A stretch of 64,000 nt of DNA from positions 5,174-69,173 of the forward strand of contig DAOLDD010000013.1 in assembly GCA_035327585.1 (NCBI GenBank), read 5' to 3'. This document shows positions 2,473 to 29,462 of the stretch, in pieces (positions within the stretch are counted from its first letter, which is position 1; every line of letters starts with the position of its first letter). Source of the stretch: Kiritimatiellia bacterium (GTDB taxonomy: Bacteria > Verrucomicrobiota > Kiritimatiellia > CAIVKH01). The notes under the pieces were generated by a model. It was not told the origin of the DNA. It ran no database searches and saw only the letters and a program-made list of their open reading frames with translations. The translations under genes were made by a program, and so were the position numbers.

Positions 2473-3945
2473 ATGAACCACACGACCACCCGAATTGGAA
2501 TCCGACTGCTGGCCGCGCTGGGCCTGTTCGCCCTGCCATGCGCGACCGCGCCTGCCGCGAAGGCGCCCGACCTGCCGCGTGAGGAGGCGGTGCTCACGGC
2601 TGCACCGCGGGTGCCGCCGCCCATCGCGCGACGCACGCCGGCGCACGTGGTGGTGAACCTGGAGGTGAAGGAGTTGGTGGGTCGCCTCGCGGACGGCGTG
2701 GAATACACCTTCTGGACCTTCGGCGGCACGGTGCCGGGACCCTTCATCCGCGTGCGCGAGGGCGACCATGTGGAGTTTTACCTGCACAATCATCCGGACA
2801 ACAAACTGCCGCACAACATCGACCTGCACGCGGTGACCGGGCCGGGCGGCGGCGCGGCGGCGTCCTTCACCGCGCCGGGGCACAGCTCCAAATTCAGCTT
2901 CAAGCCGATCAACCCCGGTCTCTACGTCTACCACTGCGCGACCGCGCCGGTGGGCATGCACATCGCGAACGGCATGTACGGCCTCATACTCATTGAGCCG
3001 GAATACGGCTATCCGCCCGTGGACCGGGAGTATTACGTAATGCAGAGCGAGTTCTACACGGAGGGCCAGTTCGGCGAACCGGGCCTCCAGACATTCTCGA
3101 TGAACAAGGCGCTGGACGAGCGGCCTGACTACGTGGTCTTCAACGGCGCCGTGGACGCACTGGCGGGCGACAACGCGATCCTCGCGCGCACCGGCGAGAC
3201 GGTGCGCCTCTACGTGGGCAACGGCGGGCCGAATCTGATCTCCTCGTTCCACGTCATCGGCGAGGTGTTTGACACGGTGTACATCGAGGGCGGCGACCGC
3301 GTGAACCACAACATCCAGACGACGCTGGTCCCGGCGGGCGGTTCGGCGATCGTCGACTTCAAATGCGAGGCGCCCGGCACGCTGGTCCTGGTGGATCACT
3401 CGATCTTTCGCGCCTTCAACAAAGGCGCGCTGGGCATGTTGAAGGTGGAGGGCGAGGCGAACCTGGAGATCTTCAGCGGCAAGCAGATGGATTCCGTCTA
3501 CCAGCCGGAAGGCCGCGCCCCGCCGAGCGAGGTGGCCGCGCCCGTCGCCGATCCGGGCCGTGAAATCACGCTGGCGGAACAGATGGCCGCGGGCGAGCGC
3601 GTCTACAAGCAGACCTGCCTTGCCTGCCACCAGGCCACCGGCCAGGGCATTCCCGGCGTCTTCCCGCCGCTGGCGAAGGCGGATTATCTCAACGCGGACC
3701 CGGACCGCGCCGCGGCCTATGTGATCTTCGGCAAACAAGGTCCCATCACCGTCAACGGCGTGCAGTACAACCAGATCATGACGCCGCAGACCGTCTCCGA
3801 CCAGCAGGTCGCCGACGTGCTGACGTATGTGTTGAACACCTGGGGCAATAAAGGCGGACGGATGACGCTCGACCGCGTGAAGGAAATCCGCGACGGCGGC
3901 CCCGAACCCTACGGCGCCGGCCTCGGCCCTGGCGGAGGGCACTGA
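2473..3945 (+). CDS. nirK: Copper-containing nitrite reductase with fused C-terminal cytochrome c
   Basis: Type-1/type-2 Cu ligands [28 protein letters not shown] and DHS; C-terminal CLACH heme motif. AGGAG RBS at 2461 favours ATG 2473 over the track start at 2377. Confidence 0.95.
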
Positions 3946-7160: not shown

Positions 7161-8477
7161 CTATGCGGACGCCGGGCCGATAAGCGGAAAGGCGCGGCCC
7201 AGGATGGGGGCACTCGGCGCGGCGAGGTGGCCTTCGAGCAGCGTGGCGTAGACCGAGCGGAAATCGATGGCGTGCCGCAGGTCGCCCCGGTCAAGTTGCC
7301 CTGGTTCGAGGCTGGGCATCGCGCCGTGCAGGCCGGCGGGGAAACGGCCGCCCGCGATGAAAACCGGTGCGGCGGCGCCGTGGTCCGTGCCGTTGCTCGC
7401 GTTCTCGGCGACCCGGCGGCCGAATTCGCTGAACCCGAGCACCGCGACGCGCTGGTGGTTGCCCTGCGCCTTCATCTCGTCCATGAACGCCTTCATCGCA
7501 TCGCCGAACTCGCGCAGCAGGCGCTCATGCGACCCGAGCTGGTTCGCGTGCGTGTCGAAGCCGCCGTGCGACACGTAGTACACGCGGGTCGGCATGCCGC
7601 CGCCGATGAGTTTGGCGATGAGTTCCATGTCGCGGCCCACCTTGGAACCGGGGAACGTGGTTTTCGTCGCCGTATTGGACAATTTGCGGATGCGGTCGGA
7701 GCTGACCTGCGCGTCGAGCGCGGTGCGCTCGAGAAAGTCGATGGGGCGCTCCTCCCGATGGCGGTTGTTGTGCCCGCCCGCAAGCGAGTCGATGGAGCCG
7801 CCGGCGGCGCCATCCGACATATTGTTCATGCGCTGGAAGAGTTCCTCGTCCTGCTCATTCATTCCGCCTGGCAGGCGGCGGAACTGGCGGGGCGAGGCGA
7901 ACGTCACGCCCTTGGGATGCTGCGCGGTGAAGGACTGCGGCGCTTCGTTGCCGAAGGCCACGCCCGCGGAGGCGTCGAGCCCCGCGCACTGGTTGTCGAA
8001 GAAGCGGCCAATCCAGCCGTACAGCTCCGCCCGGTTCGCGTCGCTCGCCGTTTGCCAGATTTCCATCGAGCGGAAATGCGAACGATTGGGGTTGGGATAG
8101 CCGACGCCCTGCACGATCGAGAGGAGGCCGTCGTCGTACAGGCTCTTGAGTCCCGGGAGCGAGGGGTGCAGGCCGACGCCGTCCGCGAGGCGAAGCGCGG
8201 CGTCCTTCGCGATGGCCAGGTGCGGCCGCGCTTCATAATAAAAATCGTTTTCCACCGGGATCACCGTGTTCAGCCCATCATTTCCGCCGGCGAGCTGGAG
8301 CACGACGAGGATCGTGCCGTCCTTCCCGTTCGCGACCGGCAGTGCGGCGTCGGCGGCATGCGCGGTGAGCGAGCTGATGGTCGCGTGCAGGAAACCCGGC
8401 ACCGTCCACGAGACCGCGCCGCCGAGCAGCGTGGTGCGGAGGAACTCACGGCGGGAACGAAAGAGGGGAGCATCCAT
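7161..8477 (-). CDS. DUF1501 family protein with Tat signal
   Basis: SRREFL twin-arginine motif; VVLQLAGGNDGLNTVIP, NRSHFRS, GFDTHANQ, SEFGRRV and GTDHG. Confidence 0.92.
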   Translation of the reverse strand: MDAPLFRSRREFLRTTLLGGAVSWTVPGFLHATISSLTAHAADAALPVANGKDGTILVVLQLAGGNDGLNTVIPVENDFYYEARPHLAIAKDAALRLADGVGLHPSLPGLKSLYDDGLLSIVQGVGYPNPNRSHFRSMEIWQTASDANRAELYGWIGRFFDNQCAGLDASAGVAFGNEAPQSFTAQHPKGVTFASPRQFRRLPGGMNEQDEELFQRMNNMSDGAAGGSIDSLAGGHNNRHREERPIDFLERTALDAQVSSDRIRKLSNTATKTTFPGSKVGRDMELIAKLIGGGMPTRVYYVSHGGFDTHANQLGSHERLLREFGDAMKAFMDEMKAQGNHQRVAVLGFSEFGRRVAENASNGTDHGAAAPVFIAGGRFPAGLHGAMPSLEPGQLDRGDLRHAIDFRSVYATLLEGHLAAPSAPILGRAFPLIGPASA

Positions 8478-8487
8478 GGTGGTTTCC

Positions 8488-9978
8488 TCAGGTGAGTTGG
8501 TAGTGCGGCGTGCTCATCAGGATGTGCAGGAGATCCCGGATCTGGGTGTTGGTGAACGGACCGCCCACGCGTTTCGCGAGGTACGTCTTGACCGCTTCCT
8601 GGTCCGCCTCCCGGAGCGGGGCCTGGAAGAGCACCCGCGCGAGGTGCGCGACGAGCTGGTCCGCGTCGCCCCGCACGGAGGCGGGCACGGCGAGGTCCGC
8701 GTCGACCGCCGGTTCCATCGTCGCGAGCGCCTTGATGATTTGCCCGCGCAACGGACCGCCGCCGGACAGCGCTTCATTCGGGCGACCCTGCGTCATTACG
8801 CGTCCGCCTTTCACGAGGAAGCCCGCGAGATTGTAGCGTTTGAGGAGCGTGTCCGCCGTGATCCAGGTATAGCCGCCGGGCCAGCCCTTGACGTTTGGCG
8901 GCTGGAACAGTTCCTGGCCGAGTGTGGCCAGGATGCCGGCGCACGCCTCGTCGGACGGCAGCGTGGCCTGCAGCATGCGCGTCGTGCCCGCGAGCCATTG
9001 CGCCGGACTCTTGATCTGCGTGCGCCGCGCCCGCTCACTGTAGAAGGCGCGGCTCCGGAACATGGCGCGCAGGACGGGCTTTAGTTCGAGCTGGTGTTTC
9101 ACGAACACCGCCGCGAGGGCGTTAACCACCTCCGGTTCCGGGTCGTCGTATGCGAAGAAACTCCACAGCTTCGCGCAGATGAACGGGGCCATCGCCGGTT
9201 GCTTAAGGATCAGGCGGACGGCGTCACCGCCGTTGAAGGCGCCGGTCTCGCCGAAGATCGTCTTGGCGCCGGTGTCGCGCAGACGGGGGCGTTCCATGAA
9301 GCGAAAAGCCTCCTGTTGCAGGCTCCACCCGCAAAACGCGCGCGCCGCGTTCTTGATGTCCTCCTCGGCATAGTTGCCCTCGCCGAGGGAGAACAGTTCC
9401 ATCACCTCGCGCGCGAAATTCTCATTCGGCTGCTTTGGGTTGCTGCGCGCATTGTCGAGATAGATCAGCATCGCCGGGTCCTGCGCCACCGCGACGACCA
9501 GCGCCTCGAAATTTCCCGCCGCGTGCGCGCGGAACGTCGTGTTCTGCAGGTACATCGGGTAGGCGAACCGCACCTTTTCGAAACTCGTCGCGAAGTGGCC
9601 GTGCCAGAACAGGGTGAGTTTTTCCTGCAGGGGGCGCGCGGTGTTGCGCATGCGAGCGAGCCACCAGCCGCGCGCGGCGATGATGCGCAGGGCCTCGGTT
9701 CGCCGCTCCTCGCGCTGGTATTCCTGCCGTTCCTCCCGCGTCATTCCCTGCGTGGCGCGGGGATCGGGCCTTGCGTCCGCGCCGTCTGCGGCCGCGAAGG
9801 CGGGCGGTTCAACCACATCCGGTATGGCCTCGAAATCGACCAGTCGGTCCACCGCCTCGCCAGGTGTCATCGCCGCCGTCGCGAGTATTTCGTCGAGCGT
9901 GCCGCCGAAACCCGCGCGGTTCACCAGGTGCGCGGCCAGGGTGGGGGACCAGTCTTCGCGTGGGAGCTCGGTTAACAT
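8488..9978 (-). CDS. DUF1800 family protein
   Basis: HLVNRAGFG, LQEKLTLFWHGHFATS, AMLIYLDN, PNENFARE.MELF and PPNVKGW; adjacent to its usual partner DUF1501. Start placed at the ATG at 9978 rather than the track start at 10026. Confidence 0.92.
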   Translation of the reverse strand: MLTELPREDWSPTLAAHLVNRAGFGGTLDEILATAAMTPGEAVDRLVDFEAIPDVVEPPAFAAADGADARPDPRATQGMTREERQEYQREERRTEALRIIAARGWWLARMRNTARPLQEKLTLFWHGHFATSFEKVRFAYPMYLQNTTFRAHAAGNFEALVVAVAQDPAMLIYLDNARSNPKQPNENFAREVMELFSLGEGNYAEEDIKNAARAFCGWSLQQEAFRFMERPRLRDTGAKTIFGETGAFNGGDAVRLILKQPAMAPFICAKLWSFFAYDDPEPEVVNALAAVFVKHQLELKPVLRAMFRSRAFYSERARRTQIKSPAQWLAGTTRMLQATLPSDEACAGILATLGQELFQPPNVKGWPGGYTWITADTLLKRYNLAGFLVKGGRVMTQGRPNEALSGGGPLRGQIIKALATMEPAVDADLAVPASVRGDADQLVAHLARVLFQAPLREADQEAVKTYLAKRVGGPFTNTQIRDLLHILMSTPHYQLT

Positions 9979-10040: not shown

Positions 10041-12260
<2,220 letters not shown>

Positions 12261-12280: not shown

Positions 12281-12464
12281 CCTCGTCATCGTCCTCCTCG
12301 TCCTCAATTCGGAATATTTACCACGGAGTACACGGAGGCACGGAGAGAGGAGAACGAGGGACCGCGGATTAATCCGCGTTAATCCGTTTAATCGGCGGTC
12401 AAATCTACCTCTTCTTACGCAATGGCATTCGACAATGAGAACGACGACGAGTACGAGGACGAAG
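12281..12464. repeat. Nested repeat element in the divergent yyaL/amidase intergenic region
   Basis: Outer inverted hexamer arms ((C/A)TCGTC units at 12282-12308; GAC/GAG-type hexamers at 12431-12463) enclose a CACGGAG x3 arm (12322-12345) and an AATCCG-type arm (12361-12400). Confidence 0.7.
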
Positions 12465-14434: not shown

Positions 14435-14509
14435 CGTTCGCGTTCACGTACCCGTACACGCTCCTGGCTTTCGTGATCGTGAACGTGTACGTGAACGTGA
14501 ATGAGAACG
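14435..14509. repeat. Hairpin of inverted hexamer arrays (CGTTCA/CGTGAA), copy 1
   Basis: CGTTCG CGTTCA CGTACC CGTACA CGCTCC ... CGTGAT CGTGAA CGTGTA CGTGAA CGTGAA TGAGAA. Confidence 0.8.
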
Positions 14510-14524
14510 GAAGGGTGGCGGGCC

Positions 14525-17804: not shown

Positions 17805-17833
17805 AACTGTTCTGATCGCAGCGGATACTCCCC

Positions 17834-17900
17834 CGTTCACGTTCACGTTACCGTTCACGGTTGTCGTGTACGTGTAGGTGTACGTGAACGTGAACGAGAG
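17834..17900. repeat. Hairpin of inverted hexamer arrays (CGTTCA/CGTGAA), copy 2
   Basis: CGTTCA CGTTCA CGTTAC CGTTCA ... CGTGTA CGTGTA GGTGTA CGTGAA CGTGAA CGAGAG. Confidence 0.8.
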
Positions 17901-19223: not shown

Positions 19224-21680
19224 ATGCCGTATCCATTCGCACAACTTGAGCCGAAGTGGCAGGCCTGGTGGCTGGCCCACAAGACCTTCCGCACACCCGA
19301 CCAGCCGGACCCGGCGAAGCCGAAGTTCTATGCGCTGGACATGTTCCCGTATCCGAGTGGAGCGGGGCTGCATGTCGGGCATCCGGAGGGCTACACGGCT
19401 ACGGATATTCTGTGCCGCTACAAGCGGATGAAGGGGTTCAACGTGCTGCACCCGATGGGGTGGGACGCGTTCGGGCTGCCGGCGGAGCAGTACGCGATTG
19501 AGACGGGCACGCACCCGCGCGAGACGACGTATCGGAATATCGACCGGTTTCGCGCGCAGTTGCAGGCGATCGGGTTCTCCTACGACTGGGACCGCGAGTT
19601 CGCGACGACGGATGAGGACTACTACCGTTGGACGCAGTGGATTTTCCTCAAGCTCTACGAGAAGGGCCTCGCCTACCAGGCCGAGGTGCCGGTGAACTGG
19701 TGTCCCGCGCTGGGCACGGTGCTGGCGAACGAGGAGGTCATCGACGGCAAGTCGGAGCGCGGCGGGCATCCCGTCATCCGCAAGCCGATGCGCCAGTGGA
19801 TGCTGAAGATCACGGCCTACGCCGAACGCCTGCTCGAGGATCTCGAACTCGTCAACTGGCCCGAGAGCATCAAGGAGATGCAGCGGAATTGGATCGGGAA
19901 GTCGGAGGGCGCGGAGGTTCACTTCCAGGTCACCGGTCACCGCTCACCGATCACCGTCTTCACGACGCGTCCGGATACGTTGTTCGGGGCGACCTACATG
20001 GTGTTGTCGCCGGAGCATGCGCTGGTGGATGCGATCACGACGCCGGAACAGCGGGCGGCGGTGAAGGCGTATCAGGAGGCGGCATCGCGCAAGAGCGATC
20101 TCGAGCGCACGGAATTGCAGAAGACGAAGTCGGGCGTGTTCACGGGCGCGCATGCGATCAACCCGGTGAACGGCGAGCAAATTCCGATCTGGATCGCCGA
20201 CTACGTGCTCGCGGGCTACGGTACCGGCGCGATCATGGCGGTGCCCGCGCACGATACGCGCGACCACGAATTTGCGCAGACGTACAACCTGCCGATCCGT
20301 CCCGTGGTTGCCGAGGGTAGGGCGCGTTCGCCGAACGCGCCGGACGGCGGTTTCGGCGAAACCGCCCTACCTTTCGTTGGTGACGGATTTGCTGTCAATT
20401 CGCCCTTGATCGACGGGCTGCCGACGCCGGAGGCGAAGAAAAAGATCACCGCGTGGCTGGAGGAGAAAGGCCTCGGCGCGGCGCGCGTGAACTACAAATT
20501 GCGCGACTGGTTGTTCAGCCGCCAGCGGTATTGGGGCGAGCCGTTCCCTATTATTTTTGTCGATGGCGAGGCGAAGCCGCTGGGGCCGGACCAGTTGCCG
20601 GTGCGGCTGCCGGACGTGGCGACGTACAAACCGAGCGGGACGGGCGAAAGTCCGCTGTCCACGATCACCGAGTGGGTGAACACAACGGATCCGGCGACGG
20701 GCCGGTCCGCGGTGCGCGAGACGAACACGATGCCGCAGTGGGCGGGGTCGTGCTGGTACTACCTGCGATTCATCGACCCGAAGAATCCCGGCGCCCCGGT
20801 GGATCCGGCGAAGGAAAAATACTGGATGCCGGTGGACCTCTATGTCGGCGGCGCGGAACACGCGGTGCTGCACCTGCTGTATTCGCGGTTCTGGCACAAG
20901 GTGTTGTTCGACTGCGGCGTGGTGTCCACGAAGGAGCCGTTCCAGCGCCTCGTGAACCAGGGCATGATCCTGGGCGAGGACAACCAGAAGATGAGCAAGT
21001 CGCGCGGGAACGTGGTGAATCCCGACGACGTGATCAAGCAGTACGGCGCGGACGCGCTGCGGCTCTACGAGATGTTCATGGGGCCGCTGGAGGCGGTGAA
21101 GCCGTGGAGCATGCGCGGCGTCGAGGGCGTGTTCCGGTTCCTGAACCGCGTCTATCGGCTGGTGTGCGACGAGGAAACCGGCGCGTTGCTTCCCGCGGTG
21201 GCGGGGGAGCCGACGGTTGAGCAGTTGCGTCCACTGCACGCGATGTTGAAGAAGGTGGGGGACGACATTGAGGGACTGCGCTTCAACACGGCGATTTCCG
21301 CGATGATGGAATTCGTGAACGAGGCGCAGAAGTGGGAGCGTCGCCCGCGCGCGATTTTGGAACGGTTCGTCCTGGCGTTGAGCCCGCTCGCCCCGCATCT
21401 CTCGGAGGAGTTGTGGCAGAAGCTTGGCCACGACCAGAGTCTCGCCTACGAGCCGTGGCCTGCATACGACTCCGCGTTGTTGGTCTCGGACACCATGGAG
21501 ATTCCCGTGCAGGTGAATGGCAAACTGCGCGGCAAGATCGTGGTGCCCGTCGGCGCCGACCAGGACGCCATCGTCGCCGCCGCCCAAGCCGATGAGGGTG
21601 TGCAGTCGCATCTCGCGGGGAAAACGCTGCGCAAGACCATTTTCGTGCCCGGCCGGCTGTTGAATTTCGTGGTTTCTTAG
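19224..21680 (+). CDS. leuS: Leucine--tRNA ligase
   Basis: [14 protein letters not shown] (HIGH), [42 protein letters not shown] and [11 protein letters not shown] at 19224. Confidence 0.98.
19929..19956 (+). repeat. Four tandem NTCACCG heptamers inside leuS
   Basis: GTCACCG GTCACCG CTCACCG ATCACCG, translated as VTGHRSPIT. Confidence 0.8.
20316..20371. repeat. GTAG REP doublet (family B) in frame inside leuS
   Basis: GTAG-GGCGCGTTC-GCC-GAACGCGCC, spacer GGAC, then GGCGGTTTC-GGC-GAAACCGCC-CTAC. GTAG to CTAC is 54 bp, translated as [19 protein letters not shown]. Confidence 0.88.
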
Positions 21681-21686
21681 AAAAAA

Positions 21687-21716
21687 CGGAAAACAGGAAG
21701 ACGGGAAGACGGAAAA
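21687..21716 (+). repeat. Left 7/8-mer array of the four-helix-bundle cassette
   Basis: CGGAAAA CAGGAAGA CGGGAAGA CGGAAAA, starting 6 nt after the leuS stop codon. Confidence 0.85.
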
Positions 21717-21727
21717 AAGGGGGGGCG

Positions 21728-22267
21728 ATGAAGACCTTTGAGGACTTGCCGGTCTGGAAGGCGGGGCGGGAGTTGGTCCGGCGGGTCTACGGGTTTTCGC
21801 GCAAGATTTCCGACCCGGGGTTTTGCGAACAAATCCAACGCGCGGCGGTTTCCGTGCCGTCGAACATCGCCGAGGGCCATGAGCGGGGATCGACGCCGGA
21901 TTTGATCCACTTTCTTTTCATCGCGAAGGGCAGCACAGGTGAGGTGCGTTCGCAACTGTACAACGCGGAGGACCTCGGATATCTGGCTGCCGACGAGGCG
22001 CAGAACTTGCGGCAGGCGTGTCTCGATATCAGCCGTCAGCTCTCCGGCTGGATCCAGTCGATGCAGACGCCCAATTTCCGGGGAGGTCCCCGCCATCACA
22101 AGGAACCTGATCGCGCGTGGGACCGCTTCGTTGAGAAAGCCGGCCTCGAACGCCAGCCGGATGGGCGTTTCATCAAGGTGCGGGAAGCGGGTGTTGTGTA
22201 CGGAAAACGGAAGACGGGAAAACGGAAAACTGGAAAACGGAAGACGGAAGACATGAAGATGGAATAG
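21728..22267 (+). CDS. Four helix bundle protein (23S rRNA IVP / TIGR02436, Avd-like fold) with repeat-encoded basic tail
   Basis: FEDLPVWK...QIQRAAVSVPSNIAEGHERGS...FLFIAKGSTGEVRSQL...DLGYL; C-terminal GKRKT x3 encoded by the repeat array. Confidence 0.92.
   Translation: MKTFEDLPVWKAGRELVRRVYGFSRKISDPGFCEQIQRAAVSVPSNIAEGHERGSTPDLIHFLFIAKGSTGEVRSQLYNAEDLGYLAADEAQNLRQACLDISRQLSGWIQSMQTPNFRGGPRHHKEPDRAWDRFVEKAGLERQPDGRFIKVREAGVVYGKRKTGKRKTGKRKTEDMKME
22201..22259 (+). repeat. Internal direct 7/8-mer array at the 3' end of the four-helix-bundle CDS
   Basis: CGGAAAA CGGAAGA CGGGAAAA CGGAAAA CTGGAAAA CGGAAGA CGGAAGA CATGAAGA. Confidence 0.85.
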
Positions 22268-22278
22268 GTGCGCGGTTC

Positions 22279-22309
22279 TTTTTTCCGTCTTCCTGTCTTC
22301 CGTTTTCCG
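22279..22309 (-). repeat. Right (inverted) 7/8-mer array of the cassette
   Basis: Reverse complement is CGGAAAA CGGAAGA CAGGAAGA CGGAAAAAA, a near mirror of the left array. Confidence 0.85.
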
Positions 22310-22428
22310 CTCCTTAACACTCCCTTTACAATTGACCCGGTGAACCGGAACCGGCAGCATTTACGTACTTTGCAACGAAGGATGAGGATGCCGTCACGCT
22401 GAAGTGCGTGATTTAGGGGAGGAATCAC

Positions 22429-24870
<2,442 letters not shown>

Positions 24871-28289: not shown

Positions 28290-28339
28290 CCCACTTTCGA
28301 GGCAGAGGCATCATCCCACCCGCCGCCTCGCCGGTCAGC

Positions 28340-28375
28340 CACAAAAGTGGGGTCAGCCCCCAAAATAGCAAATAG
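28340..28375 (+). repeat. Left terminal inverted repeat of the RAYT-like element
   Basis: CACAAAA-G-TGGGGTCAGCCCCCAAAATAGCAAATAG; the inner 28 bp are a perfect inverse of 29428-29455. Confidence 0.92.
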
Positions 28376-28378
28376 AGC

Positions 28379-28406
28379 TTGCCGCCACTATTTGCGCGTG
28401 TAGAGT
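28379..28406 (+). promoter_or_regulatory. Internal sigma70 promoter of the transposase, probably leaderless
   Basis: TTGCCG-N16-TAGAGT, 7 nt before the ATG at 28414. Confidence 0.5.
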
Positions 28407-28413
28407 CAGGTCT

Positions 28414-29424
28414 ATGGCGCGACCATTGAGGCTTCAGTATGCCGGGGCGATTTATCACGTCACCTTCCGCGGCAATGAAAAACGCAACATTTTTCACGAC
28501 GATTTGGATCGACGCCGCATGCTCGAGACCATGAAGGGATCCGCTGCTCTTTACGGAGTGCGGGCTTTTCTCGTCTGTCTAATGCCAAATCACGTCCACC
28601 TGCTCGTCGAAACACCGCGCGGTAATCTTTCTTCTTTTATGGGCCGCCTACTGACTGCGTATTCCGTGTATTTCAACCGACGTCATCAGCGTGTCGGCCA
28701 CTTGACGCAAGGGCGCTACAAGGCGCAGGTGGTGGAGGGCGACGCCTATTTGATGAAACTCAGCCGTTACATCCATCTCAATCCCGTACAGACCAAAGCC
28801 TTGCGCGATCTGCCGCTGCCAGAACGCCGTCGCCTGTTGCGAAACTTTCCCTGGAGTACTTATCGCGGCTACGCTGGTCTCGATGAGAAGTGGGACTGGA
28901 TTGAGTTCGAACCTGTGTGGGGGTTGCTGCCGAAGTCCGCGGGAGAGCGTGCGGAGCTGGCTTACCGATCGTATGTTGAGACTGGATTGGCCACGACGGA
29001 CGAAGATTTCCTCGAAGCGTACAGTAATGCGCGATTGGCGCTCGGTCCCGATGATTTCCGGCGAGGCGTGGAAGGCCGACACTTAAAACTGTTGAAGGCG
29101 TCCCGCTCGAAGGAGGATGTAGCATTTCGCCGCGCCCCGGCGCTCCAATCCGCACAAACGATATGTCAGGCCGTTGCCACCGTTTTTGGCGTGCCCATGG
29201 CGGAGTTGGTTCGGCGCAAACGTGGCCACCCGGCGAGGGCTGCGCTGTGTTGGTATCTCGTTCATTCGGGAGGATTAACGCAACGAAACGTCGCAGAACT
29301 GGTTGGGTTGCAGGGCGGAACCGCCGTTGCCTATCAATTGAAGCTGTGGGCCACGCGCTGGTCCATACTCGACGAAATAGCACCCATGAAGTCAGCGCTA
29401 AACAGCATGCTCGGAGAGAAGTGA
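28414..29424 (+). CDS. Y1 HUH transposase (RAYT/IS200-like) with C-terminal DnaA-domain-IV-like HTH
   Basis: MARPLR...YHVTFRGN, CLMPNHVHLL (HUH), QGRYKA, RYIHLNPV (catalytic Tyr) and PWSTY; C-terminal helical HTH. Confidence 0.93.
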   Translation: MARPLRLQYAGAIYHVTFRGNEKRNIFHDDLDRRRMLETMKGSAALYGVRAFLVCLMPNHVHLLVETPRGNLSSFMGRLLTAYSVYFNRRHQRVGHLTQGRYKAQVVEGDAYLMKLSRYIHLNPVQTKALRDLPLPERRRLLRNFPWSTYRGYAGLDEKWDWIEFEPVWGLLPKSAGERAELAYRSYVETGLATTDEDFLEAYSNARLALGPDDFRRGVEGRHLKLLKASRSKEDVAFRRAPALQSAQTICQAVATVFGVPMAELVRRKRGHPARAALCWYLVHSGGLTQRNVAELVGLQGGTAVAYQLKLWATRWSILDEIAPMKSALNSMLGEK

Positions 29425-29427
29425 TCA

Positions 29428-29462
29428 CTATTTGCTATTTTGGGGGCTGACCCCATTTTGTG
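29428..29462 (-). repeat. Right terminal inverted repeat of the RAYT-like element
   Basis: CTATTTGCTATTTTGGGGGCTGACCCCA-TTTTGTG. Confidence 0.92.

Follow-up and report, generated by a model that had tools for sequence, protein, structure and literature searches.

We describe a ~630-bp unit lying between leuS and hppA in a Kiritimatiellia bacterium (assembly GCA_035327585.1), in which a gene for a four-helix-bundle (4HB) protein of the PF05635/TIGR02436 family is enclosed by tandem arrays of the heptamer GGAARAC. We think it likely that this is a self-contained gene cassette whose design is that of the 23S rRNA intervening sequences (IVS) that bear an open reading frame (ORF), but whose site is between protein-coding genes, and that it works by the transcript-level mechanism set out below. 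The stretch analysed, referred to as the window, comprises 64,000 nt of contig DAOLDD010000013.1, and coordinates are window positions. To judge from sequence comparison, the cassette appears to be a non-rRNA variant of the IVS design with a heptamer type specific to the protein lineage. A preliminary description of this DNA had singled out the unit as a candidate mobile element; what it observed proves correct, and its interpretation finds support in part.

PF05635/TIGR02436 is a very large family, and the function of its proteins has been a puzzle since the first rRNA IVS was described; heptamer tandem repeats have remained equally unexplained. The locus adds a single junction found in three states (without any insert, with a hairpin alone and with the complete cassette), a subfamily spanning the Planctomycetes-Verrucomicrobia-Chlamydiae (PVC) group whose GGAARAC arrays are translated, a tree-based link between protein and repeat across phyla, and repeated residence in type III-B CRISPR-Cas (clustered regularly interspaced short palindromic repeats and associated genes) loci.

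Anatomy of the unit and its protein

The leuS stop codon (TAG) is at 21678-21680 and hppA starts at 22429; the unit occupies 21682-22309 between them, and the three arrays and the ORF that the preliminary description had placed there are all present, as follows.

21682-21717, + strand: leader array of about four GGAARAC heptamers with 1-nt spacers, starting 2 nt past the leuS stop
21718-21727, + strand: G-rich, Shine-Dalgarno-like stretch joining the leader array to the ATG
21728-22267, + strand: 4HB ORF of 179 aa, PF05635 / TIGR02436
22200-22252, + strand: tail array of seven GGAARAC heptamers in the same orientation as the leader, within the final 66 nt of the ORF
22265-22267, + strand: 4HB stop codon (TAG), in the loop of the 3' hairpin
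22276-22309, - strand: inverted array of GTYTTCC units, forming the 3' arm of the hairpin and complementary to the tail and leader arrays

The leader array reads GGAAAAC-a-GGAAGAC-g-GGAAGAC-GGAAAAA. The tail array is translated in frame as YGKRKTGKRKTGKRKTED, the basic tail of GKRKT type noted in the preliminary description, and doubles as the 5' arm of the 3' hairpin. All three arrays were recovered by Tandem Repeats Finder (TRF) together with a repeat finder, TRF reporting period 7 at 22200-22249 and 22283-22309. The two-unit pattern GGAARACNGGAARAC occurs five times in the 64-kb window, every time inside the cassette; the expectation from shuffled sequences is 0.04, and no shuffle reached five. 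The right arm has two possible partners, being complementary over 29 nt to the leader array (90%) and over 29 nt to the tail array (93%). Folded as RNA, 22190-22320 gives a near-perfect hairpin of ~40 bp whose loop contains the stop codon (-58 kcal/mol, z = -6.75). No U-tract lies 3' of this hairpin and no sigma-70-like site lies between leuS and the ORF, and readings as an intrinsic terminator or a promoter were rejected on these grounds. An Rfam scan of the cassette returned only sub-threshold matches to generic hairpins (miRNA precursor models).

The ORF product matches PF05635 with 100.4 bits (cut-off 33.8; E 8e-29) and TIGR02436 with 96.2 bits (cut-off 24; E 1e-27), and as a query in a protein search it returned at least 7,916 matches. 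In the AlphaFold2 monomer model (overall pLDDT 81.7) the four helices, at residues 8-24, 30-53, 56-82 and 88-112, all have pLDDT above 90; they are followed by a conserved basic extension (residues ~114-152) and by a tail (153-179) that is predicted to be disordered, with pLDDT below 50. Foldseek matches the model to Xcc0516 (2gsc; target-normalised template-modelling (TM) score 0.89, root-mean-square deviation 1.6) and to BT_0352 (2rld), both of which have five chains, and more distantly to Avd (4dwl and 8ube). The isoelectric point (pI) is near neutral for the core (6.1), 10.8 for the extension and 10.2 for the tail, and the very basic extension and tail fit a nucleic-acid-binding role. No PADLOC or PHROGs model is matched by the protein, and viral contigs yielded one distant relative only.

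Compared with locus L164, the closest cassette-bearing relative at this junction, the protein without its tail has a ratio of non-synonymous to synonymous substitutions (dN/dS) of 0.065, the tail one of 0.33 and leuS one of 0.082. A value as low as 0.065, with 0.082 for leuS, shows the 4HB protein to be functional and under strong purifying selection. In the same comparison dS of the 4HB gene (21728-22183 against 6001-6456 of L164) is 1.07, which is 2.6x that of the adjacent leuS (0.41). G+C content at third codon positions is 0.77 in the 4HB gene and 0.86 in leuS, and the higher dS could come from weaker codon bias or from a separate history of the cassette.

Gene and arrays in related genomes

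To follow the history of the junction we drew on relatives from a protein database and from exact look-ups. L164, whose 4HB protein is 86% and whose LeuS is 94% identical to those of the window, has the same leuS-4HB-hppA arrangement and the same arrays. The order LamG-leuS-hppA-hppA-orf254 is also kept in relatives that have no 4HB gene (L189, L190 and L191/L192). In L190 (LeuS 85% identical) leuS is followed by an unrelated 195-nt spacer and in L191/L192 (83%) by an unrelated 137-nt spacer, neither with an array, and these provide the empty leuS-hppA sites that the preliminary description had proposed as a check. L189 (LeuS 92%) has GGAAAACaGGAAGACggattagtttcCTTTTCCcGTCTTCCaGTCTTCCGTTTTCC directly past the leuS stop, followed by sequence upstream of hppA that matches the window; it thus carries a gene-less hairpin of GGAARAC arms at the same site. 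The LeuS tree places these as ((window, L164) 100/99, L189) 98/96, with the empty lineages outside, and the arrays, accompanied by the gene or not, were therefore acquired in a recent ancestor, on the branch leading to the lineages of the window, L164 and L189. To this extent the idea of a mobile-type cassette holds good: in the comparison with L189-L192, gene and arrays act as one unit gained at the junction.

The hppA side of the junction has a peculiarity of its own at 22969-23139. The window has one 813-aa hppA, whereas L001, another assembly with identical leuS and 4HB genes, and all of the relatives have two in tandem. The window is without 2.3 kb between two 171-bp stretches held in common with L001, and metagenome contigs contain the joint that goes back 171 bp. 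The single hppA is either an assembly collapse or a deletion variant.

The closest relatives of the 4HB protein form a subfamily of ~165-180 aa in Kiritimatiellia, Verrucomicrobiota and Lentisphaerota, with a conserved extension (QSMQTPxFKGGPKxHKEPDR...GLERQPDGRY) and, past it, variable tails such as NTEGRNTEGRN, which is the translated GGAARAC heptamer. We examined 19 subfamily loci of species-representative genomes: exact GGAARAC arrays lie no more than 250 nt from the gene in 16 of them, and the remaining three have 8-nt unit variants; further copies found by exact protein look-up have the same GGAARAC arrays. The layout is that of the window: a leader array or leader hairpin, a further array overlapping the ORF at its 3' end and, downstream of this, one in inverted orientation. 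The leader array is at the same position with the same units in L164, L166, L169, L009, L012, L016, L017 and L020, and the stop codon is again in the hairpin loop in L164, L166, L169, L008, L009, L012, L016 and L017. Across the relatives the stop codon nonetheless falls before, inside or after the 3' array, and the constraint therefore acts on the nucleotides of the array and not on the tail peptide; the dN/dS of the tail, 0.33 as against 0.065 for the rest, agrees with this. For annotation, tails such as GKRKTGKRKT are thus to be taken as translated repeat DNA and not as a conserved domain.

Leader arrays also vary in length. L174 (3911-4001) and L183 (2024-2050) encode an identical 4HB protein and differ by a 64-nt indel inside the leader array, L183 being the shorter. 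Most strains have a 42-nt GC-rich non-repeat segment, part of this indel, between heptamer units of the leader. The 42-nt segment of L174 recalls the small dispersed repeats that Elhai is said to have described in 2008 as inserted in Nostoc heptamer arrays.

GGAARAC arrays are absent from 518 kb of control sequence comprising 80 metagenome leuS loci, which were found with the LeuS C-terminus, are at most 67% identical and have no 4HB gene after leuS. In the activated-sludge metagenome to which the window is linked, other contigs match 22203-22242 in the tail array only and then run into unrelated sequence, and therefore GGAARAC arrays are present at further loci in that community; one such contig passes from the tail array into another heptamer array, TCACCGG x3.

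Heptamer arrays are by no means confined to the subfamily. We assembled 80 PF05635 loci, made up of the 19 subfamily loci and 61 more distant ones from many phyla, including Acidobacteriota, Planctomycetota, Nitrospirota, Chloroflexota, Omnitrophota and Elusimicrobiota. Among the distant loci almost every PF05635 gene adjoins TRF period-7 arrays of other units, including ATTTCAG, GATTTGA, TCTGAAA, GTTACAG and GACAGAT. Overall, a period-7 array lies within 300 nt of the gene in 72 of the 80 loci and upstream of it in 59, and where arrays are present on both sides the arms are inverted complements in 30 of 45 loci. The orientation of the array relative to the gene is reversed in L184. In a clade of acidobacterial and planctomycete PF05635 genes (L029, L041, L046, L049, L058, L063 and others) an array of the same unit class as the flanking ones also lies inside the ORF, at nt 262-299, where it encodes DLKSEISNLKS between helices 3 and 4.

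It might be supposed that the arrays are a generic, genome-wide intergenic repeat, comparable to terminators of the short tandemly repeated repetitive (STRR) or repetitive extragenic palindromic (REP) kind, and that their adjacency to the gene is incidental. Among the control loci, too, short tandem arrays most often have period 7 (48 arrays in 518 kb), which indicates that heptamer arrays are more widespread in these phyla, and this genome has hexamer and heptamer hairpins at other gene junctions. However, the 4HB genes are strongly concentrated in such arrays, with 156 in 62 kb near the genes as against 127 in the other 584 kb, a density ~11x higher; nearly every subfamily gene has GGAARAC arrays and the controls have none; the heptamer unit tracks the protein tree; and arrays and gene appear together at the leuS junction. 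The generic-repeat explanation is already contradicted by the control, density and tree results, and we regard it as highly improbable.

On the protein tree the heptamer class changes four times, where 300 shuffles gave 18 changes on average and never fewer than 14. GATTTSA-type units are retained by one protein clade (99% support) whose hosts belong to at least eight phyla and include one member of Kiritimatiellia and two of Verrucomicrobiia. The heptamer class thus tracks the protein tree and not the host, and gene and arrays are therefore passed on, both by inheritance and by transfer between hosts, as one unit.

GGAARAC units are also present inside another gene of the window, as follows.

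11310-11336, - strand: solo array of four GGAARAC units inside a yyaL-like gene (10041-12260, minus strand)

This array is read in frame as ENGRRKTEY (TENGRRKTE) in a variable loop. Two yyaL orthologues, of 88% and 68% identity, have it at the same codons with near-identical nucleotides (ACG GAA AAC GGA ARA CGG AAG ACG GAA), whereas a 73% orthologue is without it and has a loop five residues shorter, and other orthologues have a different insert. The preliminary description had cited this array as evidence that the repeat travels without the gene. The array is real and in frame, but its presence at the same codons in those two orthologues shows that it is long established in this variable loop and was not newly deposited there, and it is not evidence of recent travel.

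Repeats of other kinds are also present in the window. At 14440-14510 and 17832-17900 there are gene-less hairpins of inverted hexamer arrays (CGTGAA/CGTTCA/CGTGTA family), one between co-directional and one between convergent genes, which have the grammar of the cassette arms with period 6 and no gene. A composite repeat at 1700-1790 and 12320-12400 consists of three CACGGAG(N) units and a TAATCCG-type array, the TAATCCG module being inverted relative to the CACGGAG module in one copy as compared with the other.

Genomic contexts, proposed mechanism and mobility

Copies of the subfamily adjoin tetR, isocitrate dehydrogenase, queF/rpoD, ribH, EF-G, malic enzyme and nth genes as well as leuS, and at least five (five or six of ~24) subfamily loci are inside type III-B CRISPR-Cas loci, among cmr genes. 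The genes next to these CRISPR-located copies include CARF genes of Cas_NE0113, Card1-like and Csm6-like types. The CRISPR-located copies do not form one clade (approximately unbiased test, p = 1e-9), nor, probably, do the two leuS-adjacent lineages, window/L164 and L020 (p = 0.017, one branch being long). Copies have thus passed from one context to another repeatedly, and have both entered and left type III-B CRISPR-Cas loci. Here too the mobile cassette of the preliminary description finds support, with the cassette in many unrelated contexts and the heptamer type travelling with the protein lineage.

The CRISPR-located locus L004 is rich in arrays. Further GGAARAC arrays are at 3096-3116, 7634-7707 and 8649-8722: one is at the junction of an upstream 407-aa ORF and a 266-aa ORF; three arrays at 30-nt spacing precede the Cas_NE0113 gene and a gene-less hairpin follows; and the tail of the gene itself is KTEDGKRKTE.

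These contexts raise the question of whether the subfamily is an accessory of type III-B CRISPR-Cas systems, for example a regulator or partner of CARF effectors, with the leuS-hppA copy a stray. The five or six copies among cmr genes beside CARF genes speak for this, and 23S_rRNA_IVP genes have been described as scattered inside cas loci and as enriched there (PMC3936711; PMC10910872). Most copies, however, are at housekeeping junctions, the CRISPR-located ones are polyphyletic, no PADLOC model is matched, and defence islands are general insertion sinks. Nor is there a cas gene within the ~10 kb annotated on either side (L001), the stretch to which the cas scan was confined. We therefore consider the accessory role quite unlikely.

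Our preferred reading, of an IVS-like cassette between protein-coding genes, includes a mechanism in several steps. Because nothing resembling a promoter lies between leuS and the ORF, the unit is probably transcribed by read-through from leuS. In such a transcript the tail and downstream arms would pair over ~40 bp and leave the stop codon in the loop. The downstream arm could instead pair with the leader array, the entire ORF then being looped out in the manner of an IVS. Duplexes of 30-40 bp are RNase III substrates, and cleavage of this one would release a discrete 4HB message or insulate it from hppA; the arms would therefore cut out or insulate the 4HB message wherever the cassette lands. 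A ribosome reaching the stop codon would open the 5' arm and free the right arm for the leader, beside the ribosome-binding site, which could provide feedback. The 4HB protein, which resembles Avd and has a basic extension at its C-terminal end, may bind the repeats of its own cassette. Finally, leader and tail are direct arrays, and recombination or slippage between them would give rise to the gene-less hairpin.

Several points weigh against this account. Co-transcription of the cassette and its cleavage by RNase III are presumed by analogy. A wobble-asymmetry test, meant to tell RNA-level from DNA-level pairing, gave no sense-strand excess of G.U pairs at arm mismatches (97 vs 110 in all loci, 23 vs 38 in the subfamily), and therefore does not demonstrate that selection maintains a stem in the mRNA; the arms could equally act at the DNA level, as hairpins or as repeats bound by protein. 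Given the lack of a U-tract and of a promoter-like site, the hairpin may or may not have a regulatory role. No recombinase was found at the cassette. A direct duplication that might mark a target site is not visible at 21675-21685 or 22305-22315, and the empty sites of L190 and L191 are too diverged for base-by-base alignment. Presence/absence polymorphism within species was not found, nor was a cassette-less joint in contigs of four DNA metagenome runs.

The order of events at the junction is also ambiguous, since two events are needed both if a cassette was gained and later lost its ORF in L189 and if a hairpin was gained into which the ORF was then inserted. We favour gain of the whole cassette and loss of the ORF in L189 as the more probable order, because recombination between the leader and tail direct repeats gives exactly the L189 product, because the L189 loop keeps GGATTAG where the window has GGAATAG (last codon and stop), and because GGAARAC arrays otherwise almost always accompany the gene.

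The wobble result also bears on a different placing of the function, in which the arrays are foremost a binding lattice for an Avd-like oligomer, on DNA or RNA, forming an autoregulatory or nucleoprotein module to which mobility is secondary; the oligomer would recognise the heptamer of its own lineage and thereby hold gene and repeats together. This is compatible with the IVS-like cassette, and differs in putting the function in recognition of the repeats by the protein and not in RNA processing. The absence of an RNA-strand bias in the arms is as it would predict; so are the co-segregation of heptamer class with protein clade across host phyla, the persistence of arrays whether translated or not, the high pI of extension and tail, and the match of the fold to Avd, a part of the ribonucleoprotein (8ube) of diversity-generating retroelements (DGRs). 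Recognition is so far a prediction, however, and the 4HB core is not basic; joint transfer of gene and arrays would explain the co-segregation without recognition, and the orientation of the arrays relative to the gene is reversible, as in L184. On balance we take the binding lattice to be a possible but less probable explanation.

The preliminary description went further and proposed a minimal element that is mobilised in trans, possibly by way of an RNA hairpin into which its inverted arms fold; we weigh this here as an element active at present. The gain at the junction, the existence of a gene-less derivative, the many unrelated contexts, the absence of a local recombinase and the other GGAARAC arrays in contigs of the same metagenome could all be accommodated by such an element. 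Nevertheless, we see no sign of current movement: identical 4HB proteins keep one context each in all 5, 23 and 9 contigs from different samples, many in the case of the latter two, and the site is fixed within species. The sampled genomes have one subfamily copy each, no reverse transcriptase is encoded within 10 kb, the sense strand gives no wobble signal, the yyaL array is old, and viral contigs yielded a single relative. Current activity of this kind thus seems unlikely.

The preliminary description had also stated that there was no transposase, integrase or reverse transcriptase. This stands for the immediate neighbourhood, and no RVT domain and no integrase is encoded by the genes called up to 10 kb away in each direction; it does not stand for a Y1_Tnp (IS200-like) gene 6 kb downstream, at 28414-29424. 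The flanks of this gene, 28338-28380 and 29424-29462, are its own ~30-nt inverted repeats GGGGTCAGCCCCCAAAATAGCAAATAG, an arrangement resembling that of REP-associated tyrosine transposases (RAYTs). These repeats are unrelated to GGAARAC, and Y1_Tnp was rejected as the mobilising enzyme. A Y1_Tnp homologue in L007, 43% identical and with analogous flanks, is directly upstream of the 4HB cassette of that locus, and has a sub-threshold match to the DnaA C-terminal helix-turn-helix (23.8 bits, cut-off 31.5).

The questions that follow from the preferred reading are whether the protein binds its own repeat, whether RNase III cuts the arms, and by what mode the cassette moves.

Relation to known systems

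The preliminary description had set aside the rRNA context of this protein family as not applicable here, but the anatomy is that of an ORF-bearing 23S rRNA IVS, down to the tandem heptamers before the ORF. The IVS of Coxiella burnetii has three tandem GACAGAT heptamers, variable in number among strains, before an ORF for S23p, and an RNase III site at the first GACAGAT repeat (PMC4990558). As in that IVS, the ORF belongs to PF05635 and is enclosed by pairing inverted repeats, and tandem heptamers, here the leader array at 21682-21717, are directly before it. GACAGAT itself flanks PF05635 genes in the Planctomycetia loci L057 and L075. Sporadic distribution among relatives is a further likeness, to the IVS of Coxiella and also of Leptospira, whose ORF-bearing 23S rRNA IVS were reportedly described by Ralph and McClelland in 1993. 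Unlike an IVS, which interrupts helix 25 or 45 of 23S rRNA, the unit lies between leuS and hppA; its arms consist wholly of heptamer arrays, and one of these is translated as the tail of the protein. Excision by RNase III, a feature of IVS, is a prediction for this unit. The ORF, moreover, is under strong purifying selection, unlike Coxiella S23p, which is reported to be decaying (PMC4990558). In the literature consulted, heptamers before an S23p ORF are described for the Coxiella case only, and we found no statement that inverted heptamer arrays generally surround PF05635 genes, nor of a link between STRR-type arrays and PF05635.

The relation of the 4HB fold to Avd is already known (PMC10053308). 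The protein described here shares the four-helix-bundle fold of Avd (4dwl, 8ube), with TM scores of 0.80-0.83 when normalised to Avd and 0.51-0.52 when normalised to the query. Avd is part of a ribonucleoprotein; identity to it is only 10-11% and, unlike in Avd, the core is not basic. The locus also differs from a DGR in that the genes called up to 10 kb to its left and right encode no RVT domain, a comparison that did not extend to template/variable repeat pairs.

REP and REPIN elements, which RAYTs mobilise in trans, resemble the unit in being short hairpin-forming intergenic repeats at gene junctions, and there is a Y1_Tnp gene 6 kb away. The cassette differs in carrying a gene and in having tandem arrays as arms, not a single palindrome. 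Integron cassettes likewise consist of an apparently promoter-less ORF followed by an imperfect inverted repeat and are found in many contexts. Here, unlike in integrons, there is no integrase within 10 kb and no attI/attC consensus, and a single unit has periodic heptamer arms.

The STRR heptanucleotide repeats of heterocystous cyanobacteria, reportedly described by Mazel et al. in 1990, are said to be dispersed and to have no cognate gene. The arrays of the cassette are like them in their strict 7-nt period, in numbering from a few to tens of copies and in being mostly intergenic, and unlike them in forming inverted arms around a specific gene family and in a non-cyanobacterial host, with relatives in Kiritimatiellia. 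GGAARAC is not known to be one of the STRR units. STRR sequences have been cited as a fingerprinting target (PMC5088731).

Taken jointly, these comparisons permit a broader and more tentative view, which we put forward as a possibility. PF05635 proteins may be trans-acting partners that recognise and maintain, and possibly spread, the 7-nt array of their own lineage. The gene-less inverted heptamer hairpins that are scattered over many bacterial genomes, including those of STRR type and that of L189, could be relics of ORF loss by recombination between direct arrays. IVS, heptamer repeats and the 4HB genes of CRISPR-Cas loci would then represent one pan-bacterial selfish cassette.

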